Source of the DNA: an uncultured Candidatus Saccharibacteria bacterium
GTDB taxonomy: Bacteria; Patescibacteriota; Dojkabacteria; J137
Assembly (NCBI GenBank): GCA_965230975.1
Contig: OZ246402.1
Coordinates: 637,009 to 701,008, forward strand
Length of the DNA: 64,000 bases
Reading direction: 5' to 3'
The position numbers were made by a program, and so were the translations under genes. Below are positions 5,067 to 24,157 of the stretch, piece after piece. Each line of letters starts with the position of its first letter. Within the stretch, counting starts at the first letter, position 1. Below the pieces are notes generated by a model. That model did no database searches. It was not told the DNA's origin and worked only from the letters and a program-made list of their open reading frames with translations.

Positions 5067-6098
5067 TTATAACAACATCTCAGCTCCATCCTTATCAACA
5101 AATTTCCACTTCTTATTACTACCAGAAGTCTTCTTATGCTTCTTAAAGAATTTTTTATTATCTTCAACCATATAAACTGTAAAGTAAGTCTTACCTTCTG
5201 AATCTTTTAATTCACGTCCAATAAGTTCACCATTTCGTTGCATTTTTCTAACTGTAGCAGAATGTATTCCAAACTCACTTTTAAATTGCCAACTTGCAAT
5301 CCAAAGATCATGGTTTTTAATAATTTCAGCTGGTATTACTCTTTCTTTTACATTTCTTCTACAATCAACACATTGAATACCATCTAAAGTCCACCAAGAT
5401 TCACTGGCTTTAAGACCTCTAGAGCAAAGATTGCATGAATAACCAGATTCTCGATCTTCTAAAAAGAAACCTTCAGGTTCCTTTTCTAATCTTTTCTTTC
5501 TTAACCTCTCAGTTATTTCTACCTTAGCAAATAATCTTGCTATTTCTGCGGTATTTGAATATTTAGAAAGTTTCTCGGGATCTAATTCTGCTTTAGGTTC
5601 TTCTTTCTTTTTACCAAACAATTCGTGCAAATCTTCATCTCTTTCATATCCTTTTAATCGTCCTGAAATATATCCTAATCTATATGAAGTACCCTCTGGT
5701 GCAAGTCTCCAGTTTGTTATCTCTAAAGCTTCTTTAATTATTTTTTCTAATTCTTTAGTACTATCTTTGGTGTTTCTATTTGTATCATTATCTTGAACAG
5801 AGAATGGGACTATGACGAATCGAGTAATTTCAGGTTTATCTAAAGCTAATCTTTTAAATTTATATTTAACTAGCTTTTTATTAAGTAACTTTTCAAGCTC
5901 AATAATGGTTAGCTTTTCTACATTAAAGGTTTTTTCATAAACAGGATCTTGATGTTTTTGAAGTTCATATTCATATACTTCATTCATAAACTTTAGTTGT
6001 TCAAATCCATCTAGTAACTCCTCGCCTTTTTCTTTTGATAAACAAAACTCAGGTCTATATTTTTCAAGTAATTCTTTCTCTTTTTGTTTTTTCTGCAC
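5067..6098 (-). CDS. Hypothetical Cys-cluster protein. It is possibly the C-terminal portion of a gene interrupted by an in-frame TGA (see 6261-6692)
   Basis: The ORF starts at GTG. It contains CNLCSRG...CVDCRR. The 54 codons upstream, up to the TGA of the preceding ORF, are in the same frame and encode a CPKC-x17-CTSC zinc ribbon with no start codon. Confidence 0.45.
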   Translation of the reverse strand: MQKKQKEKELLEKYRPEFCLSKEKGEELLDGFEQLKFMNEVYEYELQKHQDPVYEKTFNVEKLTIIELEKLLNKKLVKYKFKRLALDKPEITRFVIVPFSVQDNDTNRNTKDSTKELEKIIKEALEITNWRLAPEGTSYRLGYISGRLKGYERDEDLHELFGKKKEEPKAELDPEKLSKYSNTAEIARLFAKVEITERLRKKRLEKEPEGFFLEDRESGYSCNLCSRGLKASESWWTLDGIQCVDCRRNVKERVIPAEIIKNHDLWIASWQFKSEFGIHSATVRKMQRNGELIGRELKDSEGKTYFTVYMVEDNKKFFKKHKKTSGSNKKWKFVDKDGAEMLL

Positions 6099-6260: not shown

Positions 6261-6692
6261 TCAATCTTCAAAGATATGTTTTCTTTCTTTACATACAGGA
6301 CATTCAAGGAAGAACAACACTTTCTGAGGTTTAGTATCATGCCAATCAAGTGTTTTTAATTTTACTGTCATTAACTTCTTACAAGTAGTGCATTTGATAG
6401 CTGGTGCAGGAGTATTATCATATTTATCTTGTTTCTGTTTATCCTCATTCATCCATTCATTGATTTCAGATTCTCGATTCTTGTACCTATGGAGCTTAAT
6501 ACTTAGAAGTTGTTGATTAAGGACATAATTCCAGCCTTTATTAATTTCTTCTATTGGAGTATTTTTGATTTCAGGAGATTTGAGTGAATCTTTAGCAACT
6601 TTGTTTATAAATTCGGCTTTATCGAGGCAAAGTTCAATAGTTAGTAAGTCGTAACGATCTTCATAGTATTGTTCATCTTGAAGATATTTCAT
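6261..6692 (-). CDS. Hypothetical zinc-ribbon protein. It is possibly the N-terminal portion of an interrupted gene
   Basis: The C-terminus CTTCKK-x22-CPVCK is a zinc ribbon. The ORF ends with TGA at 6263-6261, in frame with the downstream ORF. It lies immediately downstream of lexA. Confidence 0.45.
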   Translation of the reverse strand: MKYLQDEQYYEDRYDLLTIELCLDKAEFINKVAKDSLKSPEIKNTPIEEINKGWNYVLNQQLLSIKLHRYKNRESEINEWMNEDKQKQDKYDNTPAPAIKCTTCKKLMTVKLKTLDWHDTKPQKVLFFLECPVCKERKHIFED

Positions 6693-6704: not shown

Positions 6705-7331
6705 TTATGCTTTAAAATCTTTGATAATCTGTATTACCTTTCCACAAATGGTGAATTTATATTGATCTTCTATATCTATGAATATAGGAGCATAGAATTT
6801 AGTGCTTTGAGATACTAGAGCAATCCTCTGATTATCTTCGTCAGTATAAATTTTTTTTATACAAGCACACCCGTCAATTATTGATACGACACAATCTCCA
6901 CTTTGAGGTGAAGTATTGGTACTATCAATGATTGCAAAATCTCCACTTTCTAGGTGTTTCCCATCGATCTTGAATTTGTTCATTGAATCTCCTATGGCTC
7001 TTATAGCAAATATTCCTCTCTTTTTTTTGATAATATTTTTGGAAACTTTTAATGAATCTGATATTGTGTCGCTAGCTAATAAGGTAGGTACTCCACAATT
7101 TGCCTCACCAAGTATAGGTATGTCTATAATTTCGTTATACGATTTTAAATCTTGGAAGATAGGTATATCTTTTTGAATAAATCCCTTTTTTTTGACCTGT
7201 TCAAGATGGTATTTTACTGTTTGCGGGTGTGAAACACCAATCAGTTTGCCCAATTTTCTTAAACTAATCTTTTCAATATCATATATTTTAGATATCTCTA
7301 CTATTTTATTCTGTGTATTATTGAAATTCAT
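6705..7331 (-). CDS. lexA: LexA-family transcriptional repressor (S24 peptidase)
   Basis: An N-terminal wHTH (LRKLGKLIGVSHPQTVKYHLEQ) plus AIRAIGDSMNKFKIDGKHLESGDFAIID (Ser nucleophile) and CIKKI (Lys), in the characteristic LexA/S24 arrangement. Length is 208 aa. Confidence 0.8.
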   Translation of the reverse strand: MNFNNTQNKIVEISKIYDIEKISLRKLGKLIGVSHPQTVKYHLEQVKKKGFIQKDIPIFQDLKSYNEIIDIPILGEANCGVPTLLASDTISDSLKVSKNIIKKKRGIFAIRAIGDSMNKFKIDGKHLESGDFAIIDSTNTSPQSGDCVVSIIDGCACIKKIYTDEDNQRIALVSQSTKFYAPIFIDIEDQYKFTICGKVIQIIKDFKA

Positions 7332-7554
7332 AAATAATTATATCACTATAATATACATTCAATCAATACTATTGACTTATTGACGAATCCGTAACATTTA
7401 CCTATTGTTTTTAGTTATGGATTATTTTATAATCTTTTCAATCTGAGGGCAAATAAAAAGCCCCACGCAAAGCATGAGGCAGTTTAGACAACTCCATTAT
7501 GAATTAAAATTCCAGGCTTTGCAAGATAAAAATTTTATTTATTAGGATATTTAT

Positions 7555-7734
7555 ATGTTCTATTTTGAGCTATACCTGGACAGAATAAATCAATGGAGAT
7601 GGAGGATCAAAAGTAGCGGTAATTATAAAACATTGGCTGATAGTGGAGAAAGTTATTACAACAAAGCTGATGCTATATATGCTATTAATTTGATAAAAAA
7701 CAATGCATTCTCTGCAATAATAATTGGTACATGA
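7555..7734 (+). CDS. DUF1508 (YegP/UPF0339) domain protein, 59 aa. It is not in the ORF track
   Basis: FELYLDRINQWRWRIKSSGNYKTLADSGESYYNKADAIYAINLIKNNA matches the YegP-repeat consensus (FEvykdk.g.wRfrLkA.NGeiia.Se.Y.sk..a.ngI.svk.NA). A rho-independent terminator follows. Confidence 0.6.
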   Translation: MFYFELYLDRINQWRWRIKSSGNYKTLADSGESYYNKADAIYAINLIKNNAFSAIIIGT

Positions 7735-7739
7735 CTACA

Positions 7740-7764
7740 GGAGCTCGATATAGAGCTCCTTTTT
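7740..7764 (+). terminator. Rho-independent terminator
   Basis: A perfect 7-bp stem GGAGCTC / GAGCTCC with a 6-nt loop, followed by TTTTT, directly after the DUF1508 ORF. Confidence 0.65.
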
Positions 7765-7779
7765 AATTTTTATAAGTAA

Positions 7780-8322
7780 TTGATGAAGACAATAGAACAA
7801 ACAATAAATATTGCGGGTATAATTTTTACAATAAAGGACGTGATCCTAATAATCCCCTTCTTATTGACAGTCGTTGGCGCTATATATTTAGCAATTAAAA
7901 CGAATATTAGATTCTCACAAAATCTAAAGCGTCCGGTTCTTTTTTTAAGTTTAGACACTGATAAAACCTGTGACTTAACTTTAGAAAAGGAAATAATCAA
8001 AAAAGCAAAATTTAAGATGACGTATGAGGCAGTACAAAATATTAGGAAATTTGAAAGTGGTGAACTTCAGGAATACTCCTGTTTAATTATTGGTTTTCAA
8101 AAAGATAAAAGTAGTTTTGAAGAACTAATTAAGGTCCTTTCACTAGTAAAATCAAATCAAAACATCCCCGTAATTATATATACTTTTGGAACAACTGCAT
8201 TTACTCCTGACCAATACAATAAAATATACGAAACCTATTCATTATATTCGATGGCAAATGTCCCGCTTAGGCTCATATCCGATTTATTTAATATTTTAGC
8301 AATTTATCCCAATGGAAAATAA
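7780..8322 (+). CDS. Small membrane protein with 1-2 N-terminal TM segments and a C-terminal alpha/beta domain
   Basis: Hydrophobic segments IAGIIFTI and VILIIPFLLTVVGAIYLAI lie within the first 40 aa. The stop overlaps the start of the next gene by 11 nt. Confidence 0.45.
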   Translation: MMKTIEQTINIAGIIFTIKDVILIIPFLLTVVGAIYLAIKTNIRFSQNLKRPVLFLSLDTDKTCDLTLEKEIIKKAKFKMTYEAVQNIRKFESGELQEYSCLIIGFQKDKSSFEELIKVLSLVKSNQNIPVIIYTFGTTAFTPDQYNKIYETYSLYSMANVPLRLISDLFNILAIYPNGK

Positions 8323-9400
8323 AACAAAGACAAATTTTAGTGAATATATCTCTGGAAAAATAACACCTAAGGAAAAAGAAAGGTCAATAATTTCTGAGCT
8401 TTACACAGAGCTATCAACAATTCTTGCTGACCAATGTTTTCAGACTGGGTCATACGCTAGATTTACTGCAAACACACCAGTGCACGACCTAGATGTTATT
8501 TGGAAATTACCTTCGGAAACTGCTCAAAGAATAAGGACTATGATGGCAAGGGCAATTAATCCTAATGATGTTGATGTTAAGGATATTCTAAACGAACTAA
8601 GAAATAAACTTGAAAGAGAGTATAAAACTTTAAATCGACAGGTTTCATTTGGAGTTCAATCACATTCCGTTACGTTAGATTTCCAAATTCCAATAGAGAA
8701 CGGAGAAATATTTGACATATCTATTGATGTTGTTCCAGGAATAATATTACCTGAGAATGACAAATTTAATGAACCTCTTTTTCTCGTTCCTGAAATAGCG
8801 CTGATGTCCAGATATAAAAGATTGATGAAGTATGAGAGGAAGGATCCCATAAATTGGATTAAATCAGATCCAAAAGGCTACATTGAATATGCCAGGCATA
8901 TGAATAATGAAAATGAACTATTTAGAAAATGTACCAAATTTCTAAAGTCTTGGAAAAACAAACAAAAGTATCTATTTGAAGATTTTAAATTAAAATCTTT
9001 TCATATAGAACTAATTGTGGCGGACTTAATTAGTAAAAAATCACACCAACTTGGTATAGACGTTTTGAAAGAATTCTTTTTAAAATTGCCAGAGTTTTTA
9101 AAGACGCCTCAATTTGTAGATTTTGCATATGAAAATGATAGTTCAAAGTATGTTGACGAATATATTGAAGATGTTCCAGAAAATGTTAAAAATTATATTT
9201 TAGCTAAGAGCCAAGAGGCTTGGGCTAAGATATCGGTGATTCATAGTGATAATGATACCAACATAGGCAGTATCTTTGATGAGATAACTCAAGTAGATGA
9301 GCAAAGTATCGAACCACAAGTAAAGATTAAATCAAATATTCCATATAAGCCATATTCTATTAATAATGAAGATAACCGAACAAGACTTACTTTACCTTAA
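8312..9400 (+). CDS. Pol-beta-superfamily nucleotidyltransferase (cGAS/DncV-like CD-NTase or SMODS-like)
   Basis: QTGSYARFTANTPVHDLDVIW fits the GS-x9-13-hDhD motif. A third acidic residue sits on a downstream strand (FDISIDVVPG). The 362-aa length and C-terminal helical region fit the family. Confidence 0.55.
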   Translation: MENKTKTNFSEYISGKITPKEKERSIISELYTELSTILADQCFQTGSYARFTANTPVHDLDVIWKLPSETAQRIRTMMARAINPNDVDVKDILNELRNKLEREYKTLNRQVSFGVQSHSVTLDFQIPIENGEIFDISIDVVPGIILPENDKFNEPLFLVPEIALMSRYKRLMKYERKDPINWIKSDPKGYIEYARHMNNENELFRKCTKFLKSWKNKQKYLFEDFKLKSFHIELIVADLISKKSHQLGIDVLKEFFLKLPEFLKTPQFVDFAYENDSSKYVDEYIEDVPENVKNYILAKSQEAWAKISVIHSDNDTNIGSIFDEITQVDEQSIEPQVKIKSNIPYKPYSINNEDNRTRLTLP

Positions 9401-10094
9401 GAACAATCAGCCAGAACTAAAGTTTACCCCACCAAACGTGATTCGTGGCAGGTTAAACTTTACAATGGAATATAATGCCAGTAAATTTCCTGGCTACAAA
9501 ATCTTCCATTTCAATGAAAACTTGGTGGAATCAGAATATTTGATTAAAGACAGTTATAATATTGAGATAAATACTGATGGTGATCTCTATGGATTGCCCG
9601 TATGTTTTTGTGTAGATAAACAAATAAATCAACAATATGAAGATCTTAAAGATAGTCCTAACCTAAAAGTTAATTGCATAAATGATCTTCACCTTAACCA
9701 AGATGCAGACTGCACTTTCTGTCTAGGATTTCCAATGGATTTTATAGATAGAAATTTGGCTAATTTGAGTCTTGAAGATTATCTTGAGGATTTTGTAGTA
9801 CCCTTTCTATATTATCAGACCTATATCTTCCGAAATCGTAAAGAACCTTGGCGTAGTTATGGTCACGGTCCTTTAATAGGACTTGGGGAATATTTTTACG
9901 AAATACGAAACGAAAAATCTAAAGCCAACGAGTCAGTAAAAAGAATTACTCCAACATTCAGAGAAAGGATTAAAGGTGTCAACATCATTTATAGTGAAAA
10001 TTGTATTTGCGGGTCTGGAAGGAAGTGGAGAGATTGCCATTTCAGAGCCGCAATGGGTTTGAAATTTATTAGGAGAATTTTATTAAGAGGTTAG
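9366..10094 (+). CDS. Hypothetical protein with a C-terminal SEC-C-like metal-binding motif
   Basis: The C-terminal CICGSGRKWRDCH resembles the SEC-C motif CPCGSGKKYKxCC. The gene overlaps the NTase gene by 35 nt, consistent with an operon. Confidence 0.45.
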   Translation: MKITEQDLLYLKNNQPELKFTPPNVIRGRLNFTMEYNASKFPGYKIFHFNENLVESEYLIKDSYNIEINTDGDLYGLPVCFCVDKQINQQYEDLKDSPNLKVNCINDLHLNQDADCTFCLGFPMDFIDRNLANLSLEDYLEDFVVPFLYYQTYIFRNRKEPWRSYGHGPLIGLGEYFYEIRNEKSKANESVKRITPTFRERIKGVNIIYSENCICGSGRKWRDCHFRAAMGLKFIRRILLRG

Positions 10095-10192: not shown

Positions 10193-13100
10193 ATGCTTAA
10201 TCAACAAAATATGAACAATGATTTAACATTCATTACAAATGAAGTAGGTAAATCCCTGCTTGATAGATTTAATACATTGATACCGAACTATACAAAAGAA
10301 TTCGACACTATAGTTGGGTACTTTTTTATTAGTGGATTTCATAAGATATATAGATCATTGGAAAACGTTGATAAAGTTAGGGTATTAGTTGGCTTATCTG
10401 TAGACAAAAAAGTTGCAGACCTAGTTACTTCAGACAGTTTACAAGCTAGATTTGACCTTGAATCCACGAAACAAATAAAAAGTGATATTGTAAGGAAAAT
10501 TCAAGATGAGGTTGCTGACTCAGAAGATACAAAAGAAGTTGAAGAGGGTATTAGAAAATTTGTGGAATGGTTAAAGAGTGGTAAGTTAGAAGTAAAGATA
10601 TATACTAAATCACCTCTTCATGCAAAAGTATATATTCTTACTTTTCAGGAAGGCGACAGAGATCCAGGAATGGTGATTACTGGCTCAAGTAATTTAACTG
10701 CAGGTGGTTTGGATGGTAACTTAGAGTTTAATGTTCAATTGCGAGATCCACGTGACTATTCCTATGCACTTGAGAAGTTTGAGCAACTTTGGGCTGAATC
10801 TGTAGAAATCACAGATCAATATATAACTACAGTTGAGCAGAAAACTCATATCTCTGATTCTATTACTCCTTACGAATTATACTTGAAATTTCTATATGAA
10901 TATTTCAAGAATGATTTAAACTATGAAAATGATGATGAGGATACACTACCAGAGGGCTATTTGGATCTAGATTATCAAAGACAAGCTGTTATAAATGCAA
11001 AAAGAATATTGGAGGAATATGGTGGTGTGTTTATTGCTGATGTAGTTGGACTTGGTAAAACTTTTATTACTTCAAGATTAGTTAAAGCACTAAATCAAAA
11101 AACATTAGTTATAGCTCCACCAGCGCTACTAGATGAGAATAATCCAGGTTCCTGGTTCAATGTATTTGATGAATTCGGGATTAGACATCGAAAATTTGAA
11201 TCAATTGGAAAGTTAGATCATATTCTTGCAATGGGCATACATGAGAATGTGGAAGTTGTAGTAATAGATGAATCCCATAGATTTAGAAATCAATCTACAG
11301 AAACGTATAATAAATTGGCTGAAATTTGCAAAGGGAAAAAAGTCATATTGGTTAGTGCAACGCCGTTTAACAATACTCCAAGTGATCTATTGTCTCAAAT
11401 TAAATTATTTCAGAATTCTAGAAAAAGTAGTATACCGAACCTCTCTGATCTAGATAATTTCTTCTCAAGGTTGAATGGTAAACTAAAGGGTCTAGATAGG
11501 AAGAGAGATTATGAAGAATATATGTCTACAGTAAAGGATAATGCTAAAGAAATAAGGGAAAAAATTTTGAAGTATTTGATGGTTAGAAGAACAAGAAGTG
11601 AAATTAGAAAATACTACGAAACTGATTTGTCCAAACAAAAATTAAGATTCCCTGATGTGATCGAACCAACCCCAGTATTTTACGAATTTAATGATCTCGA
11701 AGACAGAGCATTTCAAGAAACTATGGATTTTATTAAAGTCTTTAAATATAGTCGATATACTCCAATGCTCTACTATAAGGGAACAATTACTGAACAAGAG
11801 AAGCAAGGTCAAAGAAATTTAACTACTTTTATGAAGATGTTACTTGTAAAAAGATTTGAAAGTAGCATATATGCTTTTAAGAAAACTTTAGAAAGGTTTA
11901 TACATTCGTATGAGCTAATGATAGAAGAATATGGGAAAGGCAATGTTTATGTTAGTAATAAAAATGCAAACAAGTTATTCGAACTACTTTCAGAGCAAGA
12001 TGAAGATGGCTTATTAGATTTAATAAGTGGTGGCAAGGCAGAGGTATATAAATCTATAGACTTTAGAGACGAAATCTTGCTTGATATGAAATTTGACTTG
12101 AATATTCTAAAACAAGTATCTGCCAGCTGGGAAAACGTAAAACGTGATGTAAAACTTGAGAGGTTTTTAAATATACTTGAGTCTGATAAGGTTTTAAACC
12201 GAAATAAATTATTAATATTCACTGAATCACAGGAAACTGCTGATTATTTATCAGATAAAATTGGAGAAAAGTACCCTAACTCGGTTTTAAATTATACTGG
12301 AGCATCTTCTATTTCAAAAAGGTTTGAAGTGATTACTAATTTTGATGCAAAGTCAAAAGTACAAGAAGATACATATAGAATACTAGTTACAACTGATGTC
12401 TTGGCTGAGGGTGTTAATTTACATAGATCTAACTGTGTAATTAATTACGATATTCCATGGAACCCGACAAGAATGATTCAAAGAGTGGGTAGAATAAATA
12501 GAGTTGATACTAAATTCAAAGAAATTTATACTTACAATTTCTTCCCGACATCACAAGCAAATGATGAATTAAAATTAAAGGAATCGGCTGAAGCTAAAAT
12601 TAATATGTTTATTGAGTTACTAGGTAATGATGCAAGACTGTTAACTGATGGAGAGGAGATTAAGTCACATGACTTATTTAACAAATTGCTTTCAAAAGAA
12701 ACTTTAACTGGAGAGGACGAGAGTTTTGAAAGTGAATTAAAATACCTACAAGTAATACAGTCCATTAGAGACACAGATGTGGACTTATTTTCTAAGATAA
12801 AGGTCCTACCTAAAAAAGCACGTACAGGTAAAGTTTCCAAAGCAAACGAAATCGCACTAGTTTCCTATTTCCAAAAAGGAAATATTGATAAGTTCATACT
12901 CACAGCTGGCAATCTAACGAGTGAACTTGGTTTTTTTGATGCAGTAAAACTTATTGAATCTGAGGCGGACGTAAAGTCAAAAAAAATCTCTGAGGATTAT
13001 TACGAATATTTAAGCAAGAACAAGAATCTGTTTGATGAGTTAATAAATCAAAATATAGATGAAACTATTATCAAAAGAGGTGGTGATTCTGCTCAAAAAC

Positions 13101-13396
13101 TTGTTAAAAGATTAGGAATTTTGCTTAAGGGTATGAATAATTTAACAGAAGATCAAGACGAATATTTGAACAAGGTTATGGATAAAGCCGAAGAAGGAGC
13201 ACTATCGCGTGGAGTTGCAAAAAAATTATGGGATCTAATTAACTCTAGCGATATAGGATTAGATTCACAAAAAGTGTACTTTTCGATAAAAAAGAATTTA
13301 TCAGATAACTGGCTGAAAGATACCTTCACCGAATCAAGCCATATATCGGAAGGGAAAAGAGAAGTAATATTGTCTCAAATGATATTTCCAAATTAA
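10193..13396 (+). CDS. PLD-family nuclease fused to an SNF2-family helicase
   Basis: N-terminal HKD motif LHAKVYILTF...GSSNLTAGG. SNF2 motifs: I ADVVGLGKTFIT, II VVVIDESHRFRN, III LVSATPFNN, VI VINYDIPWNPTRMIQRVGRINR. Confidence 0.8.
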   Translation: MLNQQNMNNDLTFITNEVGKSLLDRFNTLIPNYTKEFDTIVGYFFISGFHKIYRSLENVDKVRVLVGLSVDKKVADLVTSDSLQARFDLESTKQIKSDIVRKIQDEVADSEDTKEVEEGIRKFVEWLKSGKLEVKIYTKSPLHAKVYILTFQEGDRDPGMVITGSSNLTAGGLDGNLEFNVQLRDPRDYSYALEKFEQLWAESVEITDQYITTVEQKTHISDSITPYELYLKFLYEYFKNDLNYENDDEDTLPEGYLDLDYQRQAVINAKRILEEYGGVFIADVVGLGKTFITSRLVKALNQKTLVIAPPALLDENNPGSWFNVFDEFGIRHRKFESIGKLDHILAMGIHENVEVVVIDESHRFRNQSTETYNKLAEICKGKKVILVSATPFNNTPSDLLSQIKLFQNSRKSSIPNLSDLDNFFSRLNGKLKGLDRKRDYEEYMSTVKDNAKEIREKILKYLMVRRTRSEIRKYYETDLSKQKLRFPDVIEPTPVFYEFNDLEDRAFQETMDFIKVFKYSRYTPMLYYKGTITEQEKQGQRNLTTFMKMLLVKRFESSIYAFKKTLERFIHSYELMIEEYGKGNVYVSNKNANKLFELLSEQDEDGLLDLISGGKAEVYKSIDFRDEILLDMKFDLNILKQVSASWENVKRDVKLERFLNILESDKVLNRNKLLIFTESQETADYLSDKIGEKYPNSVLNYTGASSISKRFEVITNFDAKSKVQEDTYRILVTTDVLAEGVNLHRSNCVINYDIPWNPTRMIQRVGRINRVDTKFKEIYTYNFFPTSQANDELKLKESAEAKINMFIELLGNDARLLTDGEEIKSHDLFNKLLSKETLTGEDESFESELKYLQVIQSIRDTDVDLFSKIKVLPKKARTGKVSKANEIALVSYFQKGNIDKFILTAGNLTSELGFFDAVKLIESEADVKSKKISEDYYEYLSKNKNLFDELINQNIDETIIKRGGDSAQKLVKRLGILLKGMNNLTEDQDEYLNKVMDKAEEGALSRGVAKKLWDLINSSDIGLDSQKVYFSIKKNLSDNWLKDTFTESSHISEGKREVILSQMIFPN

Positions 13397-16300
13397 TGAA
13401 TACTCAAGCCAAACTCAAAGTTAAAACACTGTTTGAAAATAGATTTAATAAGGAAAAGTTCGTCTCATTTATTGCTGACTTGCTTAATGAAGTTGAAAAT
13501 GACACCTCCTTCCCTCCACTAAGGGGAAGATATATTAAAGCACCATTTCAAAATGGAATTCATGAATATGAGAGGGTTTGTAAATATATAGATTCATTAG
13601 GAAACCAGATAGATGTACTTATAGTTAAATTGAAAGACAAAAGTAAATTAGAAAATGCAAGGACTTTTCAAAGGAACTTCGTTGTTGACTATCTTAATGG
13701 TGGGCGAGGAGGAAAACTTAAAGATGGTGCATTAGTTGCTTTTTATTCCGATGATATTTCAGATTGGAGATTTTCTTTTGTAAAGCTGGAATATGAACTT
13801 AAAGAAGAAAACGGAAAAATAAAAGAGAACAAAAAAATGAATTCAGCTAAGCGATACTCATTCCTTGTTGGTGAGAATGAAAATTCGCACACGGCTCAAA
13901 GCCAGTTACTACCTCTGCTCGAAGATGATATTAATAACCCTACTTTAAAACAAATTGAAGATGTGTTCGGAGTTGAGATAGTAACTAAAGAGTTTTTTGA
14001 AAAATATAAAGAGCTCTTTTTACAAGTTAACAACCATCTCGAAGAAATTGTAAGAAAAGATACCAATGTAAAAAATGATTTTGAAAGTAAAGAAATTAGT
14101 ATAGGTGACTTTGCTAAGAAATTATTAGGTCAAATAGTGTTCCTATACTTTTTACAAAAAAAAGGATGGTTCGGTGTTCCCATGACCAAAAAATGGGGAG
14201 AAGGAGATAGAAGATTTTTAAGAAGTATTTTTGAAAAATCTAATAAAGAGAGTAAGAACTTTTTTAATGATTATCTGGAACCTCTATTTTATGAGGCGTT
14301 AGCCAAAGAAAGAGATGGTAATTACTATAGTAGATTCGAGTGTAAAATTCCTTTTTTGAATGGAGGATTATTTGACCCTATCGGTGATTATGATTGGTGG
14401 AATACTGTTATCAATTTGCCAAATGATCTCTTTTCAAATAACTATATTTCCCAAGATAAACATAAAGATATAGGTACGGGAATCTTGGATGTTTTTGATA
14501 GATACAACTTCACAGTTAGGGAAGATGAACCTCTTGAAAAAGAAGTAGCAATCGATCCTGAAATGCTCGGCAAGGTATTCGAGAATATGCTTGAAGTAAA
14601 AGATCGAAAATCGAAAGGTACATATTATACTCCTCGAGAAATTGTTCACTATATGTGCCAGGAAAGTTTAATAAATTATCTAGAGAGTAATTTAAGTACG
14701 GTTAGTAGAGATGATCTAGTTTACCTTGTAAAAAAAGCCGAGTACGATAAGGAAAAAGAGCAAGCTGGGGTTGAGGGTATAAAAGTTTATGAAATCAACT
14801 CAAAATTTCCGGAGGATATTAAGATTTATTCAAATGAAATTGATCAGTTGCTTGCGGATATTAAAGTATGTGACCCAGCAATTGGTTCTGGTGCATTCCC
14901 AGTTGGTATGATGAATGAAATTGTAAAAGTCAGGTCTATCTTAACAGAATTCTTGCCAAACAATAGTAATCGTAGTGAGTATGAATTTAAAAGACATGCT
15001 ATAGCGAATTCTATACATGGAGTTGATATAGATCAAGGTGCAGTTGAAATTGCGAAACTTAGACTTTGGCTCTCTCTTATTGTTGATGAAGACGATATTA
15101 GCAACATAAAGCCCTTACCAAATCTTGATTATAAAATTATGCAGGGTAATAGTCTTATTGAGGAATTTGAAGGAATAAAACTATTTGATGATAGCCTATT
15201 AAACAATGATGATTCCTATAAACATGAAATTATGAAGCTGAAGGATAGACAGCACGTTCTTCAAAAAGAATACTTTGAAATTTACCATGATAATACAAAG
15301 AAAAGTGAAACAGATCAGATTAACAAGGAATTAGAATTGATTAAAAAGAAGCTAATTGATCTTAATAAACCTCAGAAAGTAAACGATGGCGAAATTGATC
15401 TATTTAAGACTAGAGATGAAGCCAAAGAGAAAGCTGATCAGTTACAAGTATTACAAAAGAAGTTTTTTGAAGCATCACAAAAGTCTGAAAAGGAAAGAAT
15501 TAAGCAACAAATTGATGATTTGATATGGGATTTGATTGAGACTACAGTTAGACATGAAGGTAGTAGCGATAAATTGGCCCATATACAAAAAATTAGAAGG
15601 TCTAATAATAAACCCTTCTTTTTATGGAAATTGAATTTTGCTGATGTGTTTAAAGAAAAAGGAGGTTTTGATGTTGTAATTGCAAATCCACCGTATGTAA
15701 AAGAATATACGCAAAAAGATGCATTTGATGGATTGAGAAAATCACCATATTATAAAGGGAAAATGGATCTGTGGTACTTTTTTGCTTGTTTTGGAATAGA
15801 TATTCTTCATGAAGGGGGAATACTTACATTAATTGCACAAAATAACTGGGTTACAAGTTATGGAGCTTCGAAGATGAGAGATAAAATAATTACTGAAACA
15901 CAAATATTAACACTAATCGATTTTGGAAATTACATGATTTTTGACACTGCTGATATCCAAACTATGGTTATGATTTTCAGTAAAGTAAAGCCATTGGGAA
16001 ACTATCATTTCAACCTAAGAAGAATAGTAGGAAAGCCTCACAGCCCCTCAATAATTAATGACTTACTTGAGGAGAAGAAGGCTGAGAATATAGAAATATT
16101 ACATCCCAATATTAAGCCGGATTCATTAATCAATAAAAGTTTCTCATTCAATAATGTTCAATCTAATAAACTACTAAATAAGTTGACTAAGGACTCCATA
16201 TTTCTTAATGGTGATAAAGAAATTGCTCAAGGTATTGTGCCTAATCCAGATGTAGTAAATAGTAGAAATATAAAAAAGATACCTGAATCAATGGTCCGAA

Positions 16301-17055
16301 GTTTGGAGATACAGGTAGGAGATGGCGTATTTGTAGTTGATGAGAATAAATTTTCTGACTTAACACTGAAAGAAAAGTTAATATTGAAACCACTCTACGA
16401 ACCATTTCAATTTGAAAAATATTTCATACCAAAGAAGACTTCAAAGAAGTTAATTTACTTTATAAAAGGTTTAAATCCAGCAGATTATCCCACACTCATA
16501 GAACATCTCAGTAAGTACAAAGAAATAATGCTTGATCGTAGAGAAAATATAAATGGAAGACTTGAATATTATCATTTGCATTGGCCAAGAGACGAAAAGT
16601 TCTTTAAAGAAGGAAAAAAAATTCTTTGTGTAAGAAAATCAAGTTATCCATTGTTTATTTACACCGAAAATCCAGCTTATGTAATGATGTCTGTAAATAT
16701 TATTAAATCTGATAGAATTAACCTTAAGTACCTTACTGCAATACTTAATAGTAGAATTGTAGCTTTCTGGTTACAAAAAAGAGGAAAATTACAAGGTTCA
16801 AACTTTCAACTAGATAAAGAGCCCCTAACCGAAATTCCAATACGACTAGCGAGCGTAGATAGTGTTAAATCAATTGTTGATATAGTTGACCAAATTCTCG
16901 CCATAACAGAAAAGTCAGATTATCTAAACAATGAAATTGAGAAATCTCAAATAAAATCTCTACAAACAAAAATTGATCAAATGATTTATAAACTGTACGA
17001 ATTATCTGATGAAGAGATTAAAATAGTTAAAGAAGAAACTCAGCATCTTTATTAA
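13396..17055 (+). CDS. Large gamma-class N6-adenine DNA methyltransferase (Eco57I/PglX/DrmMI-like), 1219 aa
   Basis: Motif X GTYYTPREIV, motif I DPAIGSGAFP, motif IV VIANPPYV. There is a long coiled-coil insertion between motifs I and IV and a C-terminal TRD-like region. The start overlaps the upstream stop (TAATG). Confidence 0.8.
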   Translation: MNTQAKLKVKTLFENRFNKEKFVSFIADLLNEVENDTSFPPLRGRYIKAPFQNGIHEYERVCKYIDSLGNQIDVLIVKLKDKSKLENARTFQRNFVVDYLNGGRGGKLKDGALVAFYSDDISDWRFSFVKLEYELKEENGKIKENKKMNSAKRYSFLVGENENSHTAQSQLLPLLEDDINNPTLKQIEDVFGVEIVTKEFFEKYKELFLQVNNHLEEIVRKDTNVKNDFESKEISIGDFAKKLLGQIVFLYFLQKKGWFGVPMTKKWGEGDRRFLRSIFEKSNKESKNFFNDYLEPLFYEALAKERDGNYYSRFECKIPFLNGGLFDPIGDYDWWNTVINLPNDLFSNNYISQDKHKDIGTGILDVFDRYNFTVREDEPLEKEVAIDPEMLGKVFENMLEVKDRKSKGTYYTPREIVHYMCQESLINYLESNLSTVSRDDLVYLVKKAEYDKEKEQAGVEGIKVYEINSKFPEDIKIYSNEIDQLLADIKVCDPAIGSGAFPVGMMNEIVKVRSILTEFLPNNSNRSEYEFKRHAIANSIHGVDIDQGAVEIAKLRLWLSLIVDEDDISNIKPLPNLDYKIMQGNSLIEEFEGIKLFDDSLLNNDDSYKHEIMKLKDRQHVLQKEYFEIYHDNTKKSETDQINKELELIKKKLIDLNKPQKVNDGEIDLFKTRDEAKEKADQLQVLQKKFFEASQKSEKERIKQQIDDLIWDLIETTVRHEGSSDKLAHIQKIRRSNNKPFFLWKLNFADVFKEKGGFDVVIANPPYVKEYTQKDAFDGLRKSPYYKGKMDLWYFFACFGIDILHEGGILTLIAQNNWVTSYGASKMRDKIITETQILTLIDFGNYMIFDTADIQTMVMIFSKVKPLGNYHFNLRRIVGKPHSPSIINDLLEEKKAENIEILHPNIKPDSLINKSFSFNNVQSNKLLNKLTKDSIFLNGDKEIAQGIVPNPDVVNSRNIKKIPESMVRSLEIQVGDGVFVVDENKFSDLTLKEKLILKPLYEPFQFEKYFIPKKTSKKLIYFIKGLNPADYPTLIEHLSKYKEIMLDRRENINGRLEYYHLHWPRDEKFFKEGKKILCVRKSSYPLFIYTENPAYVMMSVNIIKSDRINLKYLTAILNSRIVAFWLQKRGKLQGSNFQLDKEPLTEIPIRLASVDSVKSIVDIVDQILAITEKSDYLNNEIEKSQIKSLQTKIDQMIYKLYELSDEEIKIVKEETQHLY

Positions 17056-17841: not shown

Positions 17842-19167
17842 ATGGAAGAAAAACTTCAAACAGTTTATGTAAACATAAACGACCTCGTTAATGCTGATTA
17901 CAATCCTAGAAAATGGGATGAAAAGGCTCTCTCGGACTTAAAGGAAAGCATAAAGCGCTTCGGATTAGTTGATCCTGCAATCGTGAACATTGCCGAGAAC
18001 AGAAAGAATATAGTCATTGGTGGTCATATGCGTATTGAAGCAGCAAAAGCCCTGGGGGTTACTGAGATGCCAGTAATCTATCTAAATATCCCAAACGTCG
18101 AAAAAGAAAAAGAACTTAATATAAGGCTCAATAAGAATCATGGAGAATTCGATTTTGAACTTCTTGCAAATTTCGCCGAAGATTTTCTTACAGATATTGG
18201 CTTTAATTCAGAAGAACTAGATTCTATTTTCGATTGGGACGATGAAACCCCAGAAATATTTGATTTAGAGAAAGAGCTTGAAAAGTTAAATATCAAAAAC
18301 ATTGAGATTCAAAAGGGTGATGTATGGCAATTAGGTGAAAGCAGATTAATGTGTGGTGATTCTACAGTTAATGAAGATATGCATAAGCTTTTAAACAATG
18401 AGAAAGCTGACATGTGCTTTACTGATCCACCTTACATTCTTGATTATCTTCACGGTAAGAAAAAGAATGGTAAAGCAACAGAAGGATTTGGTGCTAAAAG
18501 AAATCGTAAATATCTAGAAACAGACATTCTTCCTGACAACTTCACTGAACTTTGGATGAAAAATATCTCAGAAGTTTCCAAAGATAATTTCCACATAATC
18601 GTTTATGAAAACTGGAAAAACATTAGAACAATATGGGGTGAAATGGAAAAGTATTGGAAAGTTAAAAACATGATTGTCTGGCATCTACCAAATCGTAATC
18701 AAGGCTTTGCCCCGAAATATAAATTCTTTTCGAAACATGATATTGCAATGGTCGGTTCAACCGAAGATAAAGAAGAATTGGATTTAAATCCTGAGGATGA
18801 ACTTTTGCAAAATGAGTATGAAACTGCTTTATATGCAATATCAGGTAAGCCTCAATGGGAAGGTTATGAAAAGGGAAAGACGATACAACCAACTGATTTT
18901 ATTGAATATAAAGCCTCTGATGAAAAAAGTTCGGGGCAAGGAATAATATTTGGAACGAAACCATTAGAAATCCTAATTCCCTACATCAAAGTACTTACTA
19001 AACGTGGAGATCTAATTGTTGAGCCTTTTGGAGGAAGCGGATCAACATTGATCGCTTCAACGAAAATGAAAAGAAGATGTTATCTAATGGAGAAATCTCC
19101 AGTTTATGCCGAAGTAATCAAAAATCGTTGGGAGAAATTAACTGGTGAGAAAGGAGTAAAGATATGA
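17842..19167 (+). CDS. ParB-like nuclease domain fused to an N6/N4 DNA methyltransferase (DPPY class)
   Basis: N-terminal ParB/Srx signature YNPRKW...GLVDPAIVN...GGHMRIEAAKALG. Methyltransferase motif IV MCFTDPPY. C-terminal SAM motif EPFGGSGST. Confidence 0.75.
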   Translation: MEEKLQTVYVNINDLVNADYNPRKWDEKALSDLKESIKRFGLVDPAIVNIAENRKNIVIGGHMRIEAAKALGVTEMPVIYLNIPNVEKEKELNIRLNKNHGEFDFELLANFAEDFLTDIGFNSEELDSIFDWDDETPEIFDLEKELEKLNIKNIEIQKGDVWQLGESRLMCGDSTVNEDMHKLLNNEKADMCFTDPPYILDYLHGKKKNGKATEGFGAKRNRKYLETDILPDNFTELWMKNISEVSKDNFHIIVYENWKNIRTIWGEMEKYWKVKNMIVWHLPNRNQGFAPKYKFFSKHDIAMVGSTEDKEELDLNPEDELLQNEYETALYAISGKPQWEGYEKGKTIQPTDFIEYKASDEKSSGQGIIFGTKPLEILIPYIKVLTKRGDLIVEPFGGSGSTLIASTKMKRRCYLMEKSPVYAEVIKNRWEKLTGEKGVKI

Positions 19168-19565
19168 AAAATCTAAAAAAAGAACTAATTGAACAACTAC
19201 GAAAAACTCCGATTATAGAAGTTGCTTGTAAGAAAGTTGGAATTGGTAGAGCGACCTTTTATAGATGGAAGAAAAGAGATGGCAAATTTGCTGATGAAGC
19301 AGAATCAGCAATTCTTGAAGGATCACAAGTTGTAAATGATATGGCTGAAAGTCAGTTAATTAATTCTATCAAGAACGGAAATTTAACTGGAATTATTTTT
19401 TGGCTTAAGAATCATCATAAACAATACTCACCTAAACTTGAAGTAACAACAAAAAGTGCAGATCTACCACTAACAGAAGAACAAAAGGAAGTTATTCGAA
19501 AGTCATTAAGTATGGCTTTTAATTTATCTATTAATGATACAAACGATGAACATGAAACAAATTAA
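19164..19565 (+). CDS. HTH protein, candidate terminase small subunit
   Basis: HTH KKVGIGRATFYRWKK. Its position immediately upstream of the terminase large subunit overlaps it, in the typical TerS-TerL arrangement. Confidence 0.4.
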   Translation: MKNLKKELIEQLRKTPIIEVACKKVGIGRATFYRWKKRDGKFADEAESAILEGSQVVNDMAESQLINSIKNGNLTGIIFWLKNHHKQYSPKLEVTTKSADLPLTEEQKEVIRKSLSMAFNLSINDTNDEHETN

Positions 19566-21084
19566 TAAGGATTTTGAAATACCAATGGAAATAATTGAAA
19601 AGATTTTAGTTGATAAAAGAGCGAGAAAAGAACTTACTCGAGAAAGTCATTACTGGTTCTTTCATCTTTACTTTAGTGAGTATGTTAAATATCCAACAGC
19701 AGATTTTCAAAGAGAAATGTTTAGCATCACAGAAGATGATGAAGTAAAAATGGCAGTTCTAATTGCTTTCAGAGGTTCCGCTAAGTCAACAATAATGACA
19801 ATGTCGTATCCTCTCTGGGCGATTTTAGGAAAGCAACAAAAGAAATGTGTTGTAATAATTTCTCAAACTCAACAACAAGTCAGAACTCACTTTGCAAATT
19901 TAAAAAGAGAACTAGAAAATAATGAAGTATTAAGAAACGACTTAGGTTCATTGGAGGAAGAATCTGATGAATGGGGATCGTATTCTTTAGTTCTACCTAA
20001 ATTCAATGCAAGACTTATTGCAGCATCAAGTGAACAAAGTATCAGAGGAATTAGGCATGGAGCAAATAGACCTGATTTAATTATTTGCGATGATGTTGAA
20101 GATTTAACTACTATAAAAACAAAGGAAGGCAGAGATAAAACATATTCTTGGCTATCTGGAGAAGTTATTCCGCTAGGGGATCAGAATACAAAGATAATAA
20201 TGATTGGAAATCTTCTGCACGAGGATTCTCTGTTAATGAGACTTAAAAAGAAAATCACGGAGGAAAATATGAATGCTATCTTCAGAGAATATCCTTTAGT
20301 TGATGATCAAAATAATATTCTTTGGTTAAGTAAGTTTAAAGATATAGATGCAATCAATGATTATAAAAAGATAATCGGGGATGATAAAGCTTGGCAAAGA
20401 GAATATATGCTTAAAATTATTCCAGAAGATGATCAATTAGTTTATCAAGAATGGATTCAGTATTACAATGAACTCCCAAAGAGTACTCAAGATTATAGAT
20501 ACACTATTATAGGTGTCGATTTAGCAATTTCAACAAGTGCTTCGGCTGACTATACTGCTATGGTTACAGCACATGTATTTGGAAATCTTGAAAACTTAAA
20601 AGTCTATATACTTCCTTTCCCTTTTAACAAAAGAGTTGAATTCACTACAATAACTGAAGTTATAAAACAAAAAGGAAAAGAACAACATTATGGAAGAAGA
20701 CCTGATATCTATATAGAAGAGGTGGGATTCCAAACAGCAGTAATTCATCAGTTAAAAAACCAAGGACTAAATACTAAAGGATTTAAAGTTCATGGACAAG
20801 ATAAAAGATCGAGATTAAATTCTGTAACTCCATTTATAAAGTTAGGACGAGTATTATTTCCCCAAAAAGGAGCTGAAGAACTAATTCAACAATTAGTCTA
20901 CTTCGGAGTGGAAAAGCATGATGATTTAGTGGATGCATTTTCCATGGTTCTTTTAAAAGTTGCGGAAAAGGATAGACCGGGAATTCAAGTCATAACAGGT
21001 GAAGCGGCTGCACTTTTGAGAGGTGGCGGTGGAAGCTGGTATGGCGGTGATTATTGGAGTTCAGGAAGTAGTCGATCGTTTTAA
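19534..21084 (+). CDS. Phage terminase large subunit
   Basis: Walker A-like AFRGSAKST, Walker B LIICDDVED and a C-terminal nuclease region. The tail is an unusual Gly-rich RGGGGSWYGGDYWSSGSS. Confidence 0.65.
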   Translation: MIQTMNMKQINKDFEIPMEIIEKILVDKRARKELTRESHYWFFHLYFSEYVKYPTADFQREMFSITEDDEVKMAVLIAFRGSAKSTIMTMSYPLWAILGKQQKKCVVIISQTQQQVRTHFANLKRELENNEVLRNDLGSLEEESDEWGSYSLVLPKFNARLIAASSEQSIRGIRHGANRPDLIICDDVEDLTTIKTKEGRDKTYSWLSGEVIPLGDQNTKIIMIGNLLHEDSLLMRLKKKITEENMNAIFREYPLVDDQNNILWLSKFKDIDAINDYKKIIGDDKAWQREYMLKIIPEDDQLVYQEWIQYYNELPKSTQDYRYTIIGVDLAISTSASADYTAMVTAHVFGNLENLKVYILPFPFNKRVEFTTITEVIKQKGKEQHYGRRPDIYIEEVGFQTAVIHQLKNQGLNTKGFKVHGQDKRSRLNSVTPFIKLGRVLFPQKGAEELIQQLVYFGVEKHDDLVDAFSMVLLKVAEKDRPGIQVITGEAAALLRGGGGSWYGGDYWSSGSSRSF

Positions 21085-21126
21085 AATCTCCTAGACTTAA
21101 TAAGAGAACAGCGGTACTGTCTTGGT

Positions 21127-22443
21127 GTGAAAACACTGAATCAACCAATACGGTACTGCTTATACGCTAGAAAATCATCTGAATCAGATGAGAAGCAGGC
21201 AATGAGCATAGATGGTCAACTGATGGAAATGAGAGAACTTGCAAAAAGGGAAAAGATCGAAATAATAGAAGTTATTACAGAAAGCCATTCAGCCAAAGAA
21301 ACAGGACAAAGATCTCAATTTAATTATATGGTTGAGAGCATTTCTAAAGGAAAATATAACGCAATAATTACTTGGGCTCCAGATAGAATTTCAAGAAATG
21401 CAGGCGATCTGGGACGAGTTGTTGACTTAATGGATCAAGGAAAATTACTTTTTATAAAGACTCACTCTCAGACTTTCAGTAATAACCCAAATGAAAAGTT
21501 TTTGCTTATGATTTTGTGTTCTCAAGCAAAGCTCGAAAACGATAATCGAGGTATTAATGTTAAGAGAGGCTTGAGGAATAAATGTGGTATTGGAATTCGA
21601 CCTGGAATGGCTCCAATTGGTTACTTAAATACAATGAGAGGAAATAGGATTGCTTCTGTAGACTTAGATCCTGAGCGAGCTCCTATAATTAAAGAAATGT
21701 TTTACAAGGTTGCAAACCAAGGATATTCCGGAAGGATGATTAAAAAGTGGCTTGATAAACAAAACTTTAAAACTAAGAAAGGATATTCAATAAGTCTAGG
21801 TAGAATTTATGTTGCTCTTAATAACCCATTTTATTATGGAGAATTCCGCTACGGAAAGAAATGGTATAAGGGAACTCATGAACCATTAATTACAAAGTAC
21901 ATTTTTGATAAAGCACAGATTCAATTGGAAGTAGTTCCGAAACAATGGAACAAACAAGTCTTCCCATTTAAAAAGATTTGTAAATGCGGAACTTGTGGTG
22001 GAAGTATAACTGCTGAAATTAAATATCGTAGAACGAAAGCAGGTAAGATAAACACCCACATTTATTATCACTGCAATAGAATTAGAGATTACGAATGCAA
22101 GGAGCCATATATTACAGAAGAAGAATTGATCAAACAATTAATAATTTTGCTACCCAATCTTAAATTGAATACTAAATATTTATGGATGGAATTTGATGAG
22201 GAGATTAAAAGACTAAATCATTTAAAAGGTATTATTTATAATCAACAAGAAGCAAGCATACAACTTACACCACATAATCTTAATAAGTTGAAATCAGAAG
22301 ATTTAAGTCCCGAAGAATATCTAATGCTACAAAGTTATTTACTGCACATTCTTCAATTTGGAACTCCTGAAGAGAGACTAAGGATTCTGACTGGAATTCA
22401 ATCTAAATTTGAATTAACTCAAAGAGTGTTGGTAGCAAAGTAA
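21127..22443 (+). CDS. Large serine recombinase (integrase)
   Basis: N-terminal resolvase domain YARKSS...DRISR with the catalytic Ser in RKSS. C-terminal zinc ribbon CKCGTCGG...YYHCNRIRDYEC. Length is 438 aa. Confidence 0.8.
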   Translation: MKTLNQPIRYCLYARKSSESDEKQAMSIDGQLMEMRELAKREKIEIIEVITESHSAKETGQRSQFNYMVESISKGKYNAIITWAPDRISRNAGDLGRVVDLMDQGKLLFIKTHSQTFSNNPNEKFLLMILCSQAKLENDNRGINVKRGLRNKCGIGIRPGMAPIGYLNTMRGNRIASVDLDPERAPIIKEMFYKVANQGYSGRMIKKWLDKQNFKTKKGYSISLGRIYVALNNPFYYGEFRYGKKWYKGTHEPLITKYIFDKAQIQLEVVPKQWNKQVFPFKKICKCGTCGGSITAEIKYRRTKAGKINTHIYYHCNRIRDYECKEPYITEEELIKQLIILLPNLKLNTKYLWMEFDEEIKRLNHLKGIIYNQQEASIQLTPHNLNKLKSEDLSPEEYLMLQSYLLHILQFGTPEERLRILTGIQSKFELTQRVLVAK

Positions 22444-22469
22444 ATTAATTCCCTTTAATTATAATTCTA

Positions 22470-24066: not shown

Positions 24067-24157
24067 TGGCGGAGGAGACAGGATTCGAACCTGCGTCCCA
24101 GTTGCCCGGGAACAGTCTTTCCAGGACTGCGCACTAGACCAACTATGCGACTCCTCC
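24067..24157 (-). tRNA. tRNA-Ser (anticodon GGA), with a long variable arm and CCA encoded
   Basis: The minus strand reads GGAGGAGUCGCAUAGUUGGUCUAGUGCGCAGUCCUGGAAAGACUG...GGUUCGAAUCCUGUCUCCUCCGCCA. The anticodon loop is CUGGAAA, the T-loop is GGUUCGAAUCC, and the acceptor stem is 7 bp. Confidence 0.85.

Follow-up and report, generated by a model that had tools for sequence, protein, structure and literature searches.

The window analysed here is a stretch of 64,000 nucleotides (nt) from an uncultured Candidatus Saccharibacteria bacterium (contig OZ246402.1, positions 637,009 to 701,008; GC content of the contig ~31%). It holds a cassette of three + strand open reading frames (ORFs) in the order A-B-C, which we discuss as an antiphage signalling system based on cyclic oligonucleotides (CBASS). 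The three genes encode a predicted single-transmembrane (1TM) effector, a nucleotidyltransferase of the cGAS/DncV-like kind (CD-NTase) and an E2-like protein with a ubiquitin-conjugating (UBC) fold:

7783..8322, + strand: gene A, 179 amino acids (aa), single-pass membrane protein, predicted CBASS 1TM effector
8312..9400, + strand: gene B, 362 aa, CD-NTase/SMODS oligonucleotide cyclase, short form without the AGS-C domain
9366..10094, + strand: gene C, 242 aa, CBASS regulator of the E2-like (UBC-fold) kind, extended at its C-terminus by helices and a SEC-C zinc knuckle

Genes A and B overlap by 11 nt (8312-8322) and genes B and C by 35 nt (9366-9400). The ORF call for gene A starts from a TTG at 7780; public annotation starts the gene at the ATG at 7783. 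When the 192 window ORFs of at least 40 aa were scanned with hidden Markov models (HMMs) made from homologues of other genomes and from none of the window's own sequences, these three ORFs alone were matched (A, 1.5e-23; B, 2.8e-108; C, 4.6e-36). Because such models single out exactly these ORFs, we conclude that A, B and C are real genes of conserved families.

Type II CBASS comprises E1E2/JAB-CBASS (1583 genomes) and E2-CBASS (616 genomes) (Xiao et al., mLife 2026, PMC12948482), and the latter has also been named 'type II short' (PMC11153139). Our proposal, which we hold with good confidence, is that the three genes form an E2-CBASS (type II short) operon whose effector is of the 1TM kind and comes first, followed by the cyclase and then the E2. 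The CBASS and defence models of PADLOC already recognise all three proteins, and the cassette is a divergent addition to the E2-CBASS already described, not a new type of immune system.

The identity of B as a cyclase is indicated by both model matches and catalytic residues, which lie as follows:

8447..8494, + strand: catalytic motif of B, G46-S47 ... D59-L60-D61
8726-8728, + strand: third acidic residue of B, D139, within SIDVV

The protein matches the PADLOC CBASS Cyclase model PDLC00785 at 7.3e-60, together with 23 further cyclase models, and passes the Pfam SMODS threshold (28.3 bits against 26.5). NCBIfam matches to CBASS cyclases all fall below the model cutoffs, CBASS_cyclase_b (2e-15) included. 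The GS...[DE]x[DE]...[DE] motif of cGAS/DncV-like nucleotidyltransferases is present in B, and G46, S47, D59, D61 and D139 are all invariant columns in a 20-sequence family alignment of short cyclases (alignment A1). The closest solved structures to the profile of these 20 short members are CdnD of P. aeruginosa (6P82/6P8U, 1.6e-17) and CdnC of E. coli (6P80), with human OAS also among the PDB matches. An identity as a minimal nucleotidyltransferase (MNT)/AbiEii antitoxin was rejected, as no match to such enzymes, which have HEPN or AbiEi partners, appears in Pfam, NCBIfam or PADLOC.

Protein C is of the kind that defines E2-CBASS, and its informative residues and its zinc-binding motif map to three segments:

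9690..9722, + strand: H109 (in DLH109LN, at an HPN-like position) and C119 (in TFC119LGF), which make up the predicted active site of C; both invariant in 77 sequences
9864-9866, + strand: third invariant His of C, H167, invariant in 77 sequences
9996..10043, + strand: SEC-C-type zinc knuckle of C, residues 211-226 (ENC213IC215GSGRKWRDC224H225F), Pfam SEC-C 25.0 bits, cutoff 20.4

Seven PADLOC models of CBASS E2 or E1-E2 proteins match C over residues ~58-238 (best 7e-20), and the same models are matched by 20 of 20 family members from other loci. H109, C119 and H167 are invariant in the 20-sequence alignment as well as in the 77-sequence one. The family carries the UBC-like signature D-[LM]-H-x-[YN]-...-G-x-x-L-C-L, with H109 and C119 falling within DLH-x(9)-C-L. 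A stand-alone UBC-fold E2 gene stands beside the cyclase gene, with a conserved Cys and a nearby His that recall C101 and H87 of the Serratia marcescens E2. The 77-sequence alignment, assembled from matches of a search of cluster representatives, was also the input for an AlphaFold2 model of C, which reached a predicted local distance difference test score (pLDDT) of 94.2 and a predicted template modelling score of 0.89; a model from a 3-sequence alignment (pLDDT 40.6) was discarded. In the retained model, a helix at the N-terminus leads into an antiparallel sheet and an active-site loop, and a long crossover helix is followed by additional helices and the zinc knuckle. Its top structural match is the S. 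marcescens E2.

The same protein could be read as the mark of a fifth CBASS-like kind lying outside types I-IV, with a SEC-C protein unrelated to Cap2. Such a reading could draw on the fact that Pfam and NCBIfam detect nothing in C but the SEC-C motif, that Foldseek and PDB sequence searches with C found no E2, and that the S. marcescens E2, at 162 residues, lacks anything corresponding to the C-terminal half of C with its helices and zinc knuckle. Sequence and profile searches of the PDB with C return only zinc-domain peptides of SecA, which match the C family profile at 2.7e-4, and C is too divergent from the S. marcescens E2 for a PDB sequence search to find it. Given the PADLOC matches and the modelled fold, the evidence disfavours a fifth kind, and we consider it highly improbable.

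The family to which C belongs is broad. A word-indexed search with C alone recovered two homologues, and a search of 1.84 billion cluster representatives found the family in 442 clusters (50% identity) at E<=1e-3 and in 105 at E<=1e-10. In the zinc knuckle, C213 and C224 are invariant among the 77 relatives and C215 and H225 nearly so, and the SEC-C motif is missing from three of the 20 locus-derived members. Single-chain fusions of a CD-NTase with a C-family E2 also exist (P0159, 666 aa; P0266, 542 aa). Their cyclase parts match PADLOC cyclase families other than that of the window and, because of this, we conclude that the fusion of E2 and cyclase arose in other clades. In C itself, Pfam and PADLOC find no other domain, and neither the operon nor its neighbours hold an E1/adenylation domain or JAB/Cap3. 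When the literature was searched for SEC-C in combination with CBASS, only Rugutis, an unrelated single-gene system, emerged.

Comparison across genomes establishes how consistently these genes travel together. A pattern search of genome contigs with the single sequence of B found nothing, and the family alignment A1 was needed to find loci: a degenerate-pattern scan, with one genome per species, gave 50 loci, all of whose ORFs were then subjected to iterative HMM searches. The hosts are mostly Patescibacteria (Saccharibacteria, Peregrinibacteria, Parcubacteria and others), and the remainder are Gammaproteobacteria, Bacteroidetes, Ignavibacteriota, KSB1/Deferribacteres, Acidobacteriota and metagenome-assembled genomes of Woesearchaeota; no relatives were found on IMG/VR viral contigs. 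A transmembrane (TM) gene resembling A lies directly 5' of the cyclase in ~43 of the 50 other loci. Of the 23 short cyclases (296-362 aa), 22 have a gene resembling C on their 3' side, and the one that does not (L038, 296 aa) looks truncated. Not one of the 24 long cyclases, which measure 434-499 aa and carry a fused AGS-C domain, is followed by such a gene. Long forms are also common among the 164 homologues of B recovered by word-indexed search, many of which are 440-500 aa in length with PF18134 (AGS-C) behind the SMODS domain. We considered that C might be a split-off AGS-C domain and rejected this, since the two are not homologous (hhalign probability 0.35%).

Because E2 and AGS-C are mutually exclusive on the same cyclase family, we propose that they are alternative regulatory modules on one cyclase-effector chassis. 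This exclusivity agrees with the published restriction of the Ig-like AGS-C fusion to type I CBASS (10.1101/2023.05.21.541620). The sister operons, found at 24 of the 50 loci, belong to the type I class with CD-NTase-AGS-C and 1TM effector. The classification is that of Millman et al. (2020). They share the cyclase family of the window (31-40% identity) and the TM-effector family directly upstream; unlike these operons, whose cyclases of 434-499 aa have no E2 gene, the window has a short cyclase followed by one. Nor does the window resemble canonical type II CBASS, which has a Cap2 E1-E2 fusion and a Cap3 JAB protein (Enterobacter cloacae Cap2-CdnD, PDB 7TO3), as no E1 and no JAB protein occur in or beside the operon.

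The described system closest in plan is the S. marcescens CdnG-E2 system (PDB 8HSB), where, as in the window, a small E2 gene standing on its own comes directly after the CD-NTase gene and a membrane effector is present, with no E1 and no JAB/Cap3. The S. marcescens E2 is independent of E1, its C101 and H87 serving, in the manner of a cysteine protease, to cleave off the cyclase's final residue, E407; it forms a thioester to cyclase G406 that interconverts with an isopeptide to K159, with H152 as a pH sensor (Yan et al., preprint, 10.1101/2022.05.25.493364). On infection, poly-cyclase chains activate the synthesis of cyclic GMP-AMP, and defence is lost with C101A, H87A and G406R, whereas G406A is tolerated (10.1101/2022.05.25.493364). 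In order and spacing, H109, C119 and H167 of C parallel H87, C101 and H152, and an equivalence of the residues is suggested by this pattern of the aligned sequences, not by superposition. Like the S. marcescens pair, the window family combines an invariant His...Cys...His in the E2 with cyclases that mostly end in an aromatic residue, a small residue and X. Unlike the 162-aa S. marcescens E2, C has 242 aa with extra C-terminal helices and the SEC-C zinc knuckle. Unlike CdnG, the window cyclase has CdnC and CdnD as its nearest relatives of solved structure, has Ser in place of the penultimate Gly and bears a 13-residue tail. Its effector also differs from that of S. marcescens: instead of 2TM-SAVED there is a 1TM protein, encoded first in the operon, whose alpha/beta domain is unclassified, and an exonuclease gene is lacking.

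The C-terminus of the cyclase is where an E2 of this kind would be expected to act:

9341..9397, + strand: C-terminal tail of B, P-Y-K-P-Y348-S349 followed by the 13-residue extension INNEDNRTRLTLP, candidate E2 processing/conjugation site

Of 21 short cyclases that go with an E2, about 15 have the ending [QK]P[WY]-x-x-COOH, in which the aromatic residue is mostly followed by G, A or S. This 'aromatic, small residue, X, COOH' ending resembles Y405-G406-E407 of S. marcescens CdnG, and by analogy the K-P-Y348-S349 region is a candidate processing or conjugation site in B. The 13-residue tail of B extends into gene C. The two closest relatives of B end in DPYKLHAML, and the exact attachment site in B is uncertain because of this.

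Whether C acts as an enzyme at all bears on a second alternative, in which the cassette is a CBASS operon but C is a non-catalytic, non-covalent adaptor or phage sensor, equivalent to AGS-C, that works through its zinc knuckle and helical extension, its Cys and His residues being structural or metal-binding. The mutual exclusivity of C and fused AGS-C on the same cyclase family suggests equivalent roles, and AGS-C is thought to tune phage sensing (10.1101/2023.05.21.541620), which favours such a sensor. The zinc knuckle, moreover, is conserved as strongly as the putative catalytic residues, and the lack of conservation of the cyclase's penultimate Gly points the same way. On the other hand, the invariant His/Cys/His arrangement matches the catalytic H87/C101/H152 of the S. 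marcescens E2, that very protein is the top structural match of C, and the cyclase C-termini keep the 'aromatic, small residue, X, end' motif. C119 is invariant as well, whereas inactive E2 variants of the ubiquitin E2 variant (UEV) kind normally lose the Cys. We therefore consider a purely non-catalytic C unlikely and favour an E2 that would act on the cyclase through C119.

The remaining protein, A, has the features expected of a membrane effector:

7804..7899, + strand: TM segment of A, residues 8-39, INIAGIIFTIKDVILIIPFLLTVVGAIYLAIK; in Kyte-Doolittle hydropathy averaged over 19 residues, no other stretch of A exceeds 1.6

Hydropathy peaks at 2.77, and the sequence after the hydrophobic stretch is rich in K and R. 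The basic residues KTNIRFSQNLKRP that follow the TM segment suggest, by the positive-inside rule, that the C-terminal domain of A is cytoplasmic. Of the 37 A-family members, all but two likewise show one such stretch over 1.6, at the N-terminus, and the remaining two peak at 1.56-1.57. Beyond the TM segment lies a predicted cytoplasmic alpha/beta domain of ~130 aa that is outside Pfam coverage: A has no Pfam family, and sequence and profile searches of the PDB gave no relative, only spurious matches to TM segments. The PADLOC model PDLC01057 ('C3a59 trans-membrane') is matched by A of the window at 3e-12 and by 37 of 37 family members; PDLC00664 (CBASS 'Effector 1TM') is matched by 34 of 37, at best with 4.6e-79; and PDLC01158 (Mem_04), labelled as a type III-operon membrane protein that 'could be a CARF domain diverged beyond recognition', is matched by 20 of 37. 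Because it reaches only the first of these three models, A of the window appears to be a divergent member of its family. For a CARF or SAVED domain in A there is no Pfam match; PADLOC gives a weak match to 'Csx1 TM+CARF' (E 0.02), beside the Mem_04 label.

Protein A thus resembles the cyclic oligoadenylate membrane effectors of type III CRISPR systems (PADLOC C3a59 and Mem_04), whose models are matched by A itself (C3a59) or by members of its family (Mem_04) and whose layout, a TM segment at the N-terminus before a small alpha/beta domain in the cytoplasm, it shares; presumably it also resembles the TM-CARF protein Cam1. Unlike those effectors, its partner is a CD-NTase and not Cas10, and by Pfam it has no CARF or SAVED sensor domain. 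The effector gene is also exchangeable between related operons. Gene A overlaps B, and in the loci whose cyclase-E2 pair is nearest to that of the window (L001 and L003; cyclase 63%, E2 47% identical) a NucC endonuclease takes the place of the TM protein, encoded at 128-826 in L001 and by the gene upstream of 3619 in L003. These NucC proteins carry Pfam DUF6602 and match the PADLOC NucC effector model at 9e-75.

This exchange bears on the possibility that the cassette is not a defence system, being instead either a toxin-antitoxin pair built on a minimal nucleotidyltransferase or a module for housekeeping nucleotide signalling that lies in an island by chance. The hosts, mostly uncultivated Patescibacteria of poorly known biology, would allow it. 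Nevertheless, the MNT/HEPN/AbiEii signal is absent, all three proteins match models from CBASS operons, the swap to NucC in close relatives is a hallmark of CBASS modularity, and the island that surrounds the cassette also holds a PLD-SNF2 fusion, a type IIG restriction-modification (R-M) enzyme and phage-derived genes. We accordingly give a non-defensive role very little credence and return to the E2-CBASS operon in considering how these proteins might function together.

The signal is possibly a cyclic oligoadenylate, and probably then cyclic triadenylate (cA3), although we would put the chance of this at somewhat less than even. This assignment is made because NucC occurs in the closest relatives and because the A family is linked to type III CRISPR. 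NucC is a cA3-activated effector of both CBASS and type III CRISPR, and CdnC and CdnD make cA3.

We propose that B, as a cGAS/DncV-like nucleotidyltransferase, would make a cyclic oligonucleotide upon phage infection, most likely a cyclic oligoadenylate such as cA3. Protein C, a stand-alone E2-like cysteine enzyme with H109, C119 and H167 as its putative active-site residues, would work without an E1 or JAB partner. By analogy with S. marcescens, it may trim the C-terminal tail of B past the P-[WY]-small motif and join the new C-terminus of B covalently to itself, as a thioester or isopeptide, or to other cyclase molecules. Such a covalent linkage would be expected to keep the cyclase primed and to activate it on infection. 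In sister operons, an Ig-like AGS-C domain fused to the cyclase would serve instead of the E2 gene. The signal may then be bound by the cytoplasmic alpha/beta domain of A, which would oligomerise and permeabilise or depolarise the membrane; permeabilisation is suggested here by the behaviour of other CBASS and CRISPR TM effectors. Membrane damage by A would halt phage production, resulting in abortive infection or growth arrest, and it is in this way that the presumed anti-phage activity would come about.

Several observations weigh against this assignment of the operon. One concerns the approach to gene A, which contains the following feature:

7739..7760, + strand: terminator-like hairpin with a T-run, between a DUF1508 gene and A, ending ~20 nt before the start codon of A

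No promoter was found (the scan gave 15 sites, as against 17.7 in shuffled sequence), and the hairpin lies ~20 nt 5' of A; read-through transcription past it into the operon is possible. Clade G, furthermore, was not detected for B, and CdnG is missing from the PDB matches of the family profile at E<=0.01. Clade G accounts for 73.65% of E2-CBASS cyclases (PMC12948482) and, because about a quarter of E2-CBASS cyclases therefore fall in other clades, it does not define the type. The penultimate Gly of published E2-CBASS cyclases is not conserved in this family, where G, A, S and C occur at this position, as at times do R and H, and the cyclase of the window bears its 13-residue tail, with its two closest relatives ending differently. 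Finally, A of the window itself reaches only the C3a59 model and not, directly, the CBASS 1TM model.

An earlier note on this DNA, made from the sequence alone, had proposed a CBASS-like nucleotide-signalling defence cassette, and in this it was right: the cyclase match at 7.3e-60, the conserved synteny, the TM effector and the E2 all support it. Its descriptions of three co-directional genes overlapping by 11 nt and 35 nt, of the GS...hDhD motif and third Asp in the middle protein (G46-S47, D59-L60-D61 and D139, all invariant) and of an N-terminal membrane span in the first protein (one segment, residues 8-39) agree with what we find. The grounds on which it would have given up the proposal do not apply, as the cyclase compares best with CBASS cyclases, the synteny recurs in dozens of genomes and the TM segment is present. 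For the third protein, the SEC-C motif is indeed there, at residues 211-226, whereas the statement that it has no obvious effector fold does not hold, since C has an E2 (UBC) fold. We also depart from the note where it saw no recognisable Cap2, for C matches seven PADLOC E2/E1-E2 models, and where it found the cassette to match none of CBASS types I-IV, for the operon fits E2-CBASS (type II short), which was already known. The TM-first order that it took for an anomaly is the norm for the family, a gene resembling A lying directly upstream of the cyclase in ~43 of 50 loci.

The surroundings of the cassette contain the following features:

5067-6098 (343 aa) and 6261-6692 (143 aa), - strand: uncharacterised Cys-rich proteins with zinc-ribbon-like motifs, in the island
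6705..7331, - strand: helix-turn-helix plus Peptidase_S24 (LexA/CI-like) repressor, divergent from the operon; Pfam Peptidase_S24 6e-18, PHROG transcriptional repressor/CI-like
7555..7734, + strand: DUF1508 (YegP-like) gene, 59 aa, between the S24 gene and A
10193..13396, + strand: fusion of a phospholipase D (PLD, HKD) domain with an SNF2 helicase; PADLOC 'HKD+Snf2' 3e-52, plus DrmD-like and DrmC-like matches
13396..17055, + strand: type IIG R-M enzyme, 1219 aa; 1.8e-215, with DrmMI-like and PglX-like matches too
within 17842-23216: ParB-N6/N4 methylase fusion, small and large terminase (large terminase PHROG 2e-82), serine recombinase and DUF4160 protein
21127-22443: the large serine recombinase of the preceding entry
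24067-24157: tRNA-Ser, with housekeeping uvrA and mfd beyond

Because its neighbours include R-M, PLD-SNF2, terminase, recombinase and tRNA genes, we conclude that the cassette lies in a prophage-derived, defence-stacked integrative island. The earlier note had likewise placed it in a mobile defence island beside an R-M-like module, and the type IIG R-M enzyme, terminase, recombinase and tRNA-Ser found here accord with that. The scans run identified no capsid or tail genes in the island, and an Rfam scan of the window found three tRNAs only. This content suggests a degraded prophage or a satellite-like integrative element with at least three defence modules. The stop of the PLD-SNF2 gene and the start of the type IIG gene touch at 13396, and the pair has the look of a DISARM-like or R-M hybrid made up of two genes and distinct from the CBASS operon. 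A type IIG homologue also adjoins the module in L032.

On the other side of the operon, the S24 repressor is a candidate regulator of the operon, or it may be merely the island's own repressor. An imperfect palindrome (7356-7382) lies just upstream of the S24 gene in the window. As in the window, the TM-effector/cyclase module has an S24 homologue immediately upstream of it in 12 of the 50 other loci (L016:3851-4477, L019:3692-4369, L009:3828-4484, L008, L011, L017, L025, L028, L030, L032, L041 and L003), and such a gene never occurs elsewhere in the 5-kb flanks. It occurs with both E2-type and AGS-C-type operons, and in L016, L019 and L009 it is on the same strand as A and abuts or overlaps it. 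By analogy with CapH/CapP or CapW, the S24 gene may be a DNA-damage-responsive CBASS regulator; the literature searched contained no S24 counterpart of either. It is alternatively possible that the module habitually sits beside prophage repressors, in a cI-moron arrangement similar to that of rexAB and cI. In lambda, rexAB lies next to cI. The DUF1508 gene between the repressor and A was not found in any related locus. Homologues of the two Cys-rich proteins appear as one fused-looking protein directly 3' of the E2 gene in L011 and L017 (6743-7936; E 1e-25 and 1e-10), and the Cys-rich proteins of the window may travel with the CBASS module.

A bolder extension of these proposals, which we hold to be doubtful, would treat operons with SEC-C E2s and a 1TM/alpha-beta effector as a distinct, Patescibacteria-centred lineage of E2-CBASS. 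In such a lineage, the E2 would functionally replace the phage-sensing AGS-C domain, and the zinc knuckle, rather than or besides conjugation chemistry, would couple phage detection to activation of the cyclase. A LexA-like self-cleaving repressor would gate expression, and the effector domain would represent a new cyclic-oligoadenylate sensor fold common to these operons and type III CRISPR.

For E2-CBASS as already described, this divergent cassette widens the known range to include a subfamily of E2s with a SEC-C zinc knuckle and cyclases outside clade G. The alternation of E2 and AGS-C on one cyclase family constitutes a natural experiment on the roles of both regulators, and the operons bring into view an unclassified membrane effector domain that is common to CBASS and type III CRISPR loci. 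The recurrent LexA-like neighbour may be a third form of transcriptional control in CBASS, beside CapH/CapP and CapW. These operons occur mainly in ultra-small Patescibacteria, in which abortive-infection defences have been little studied.

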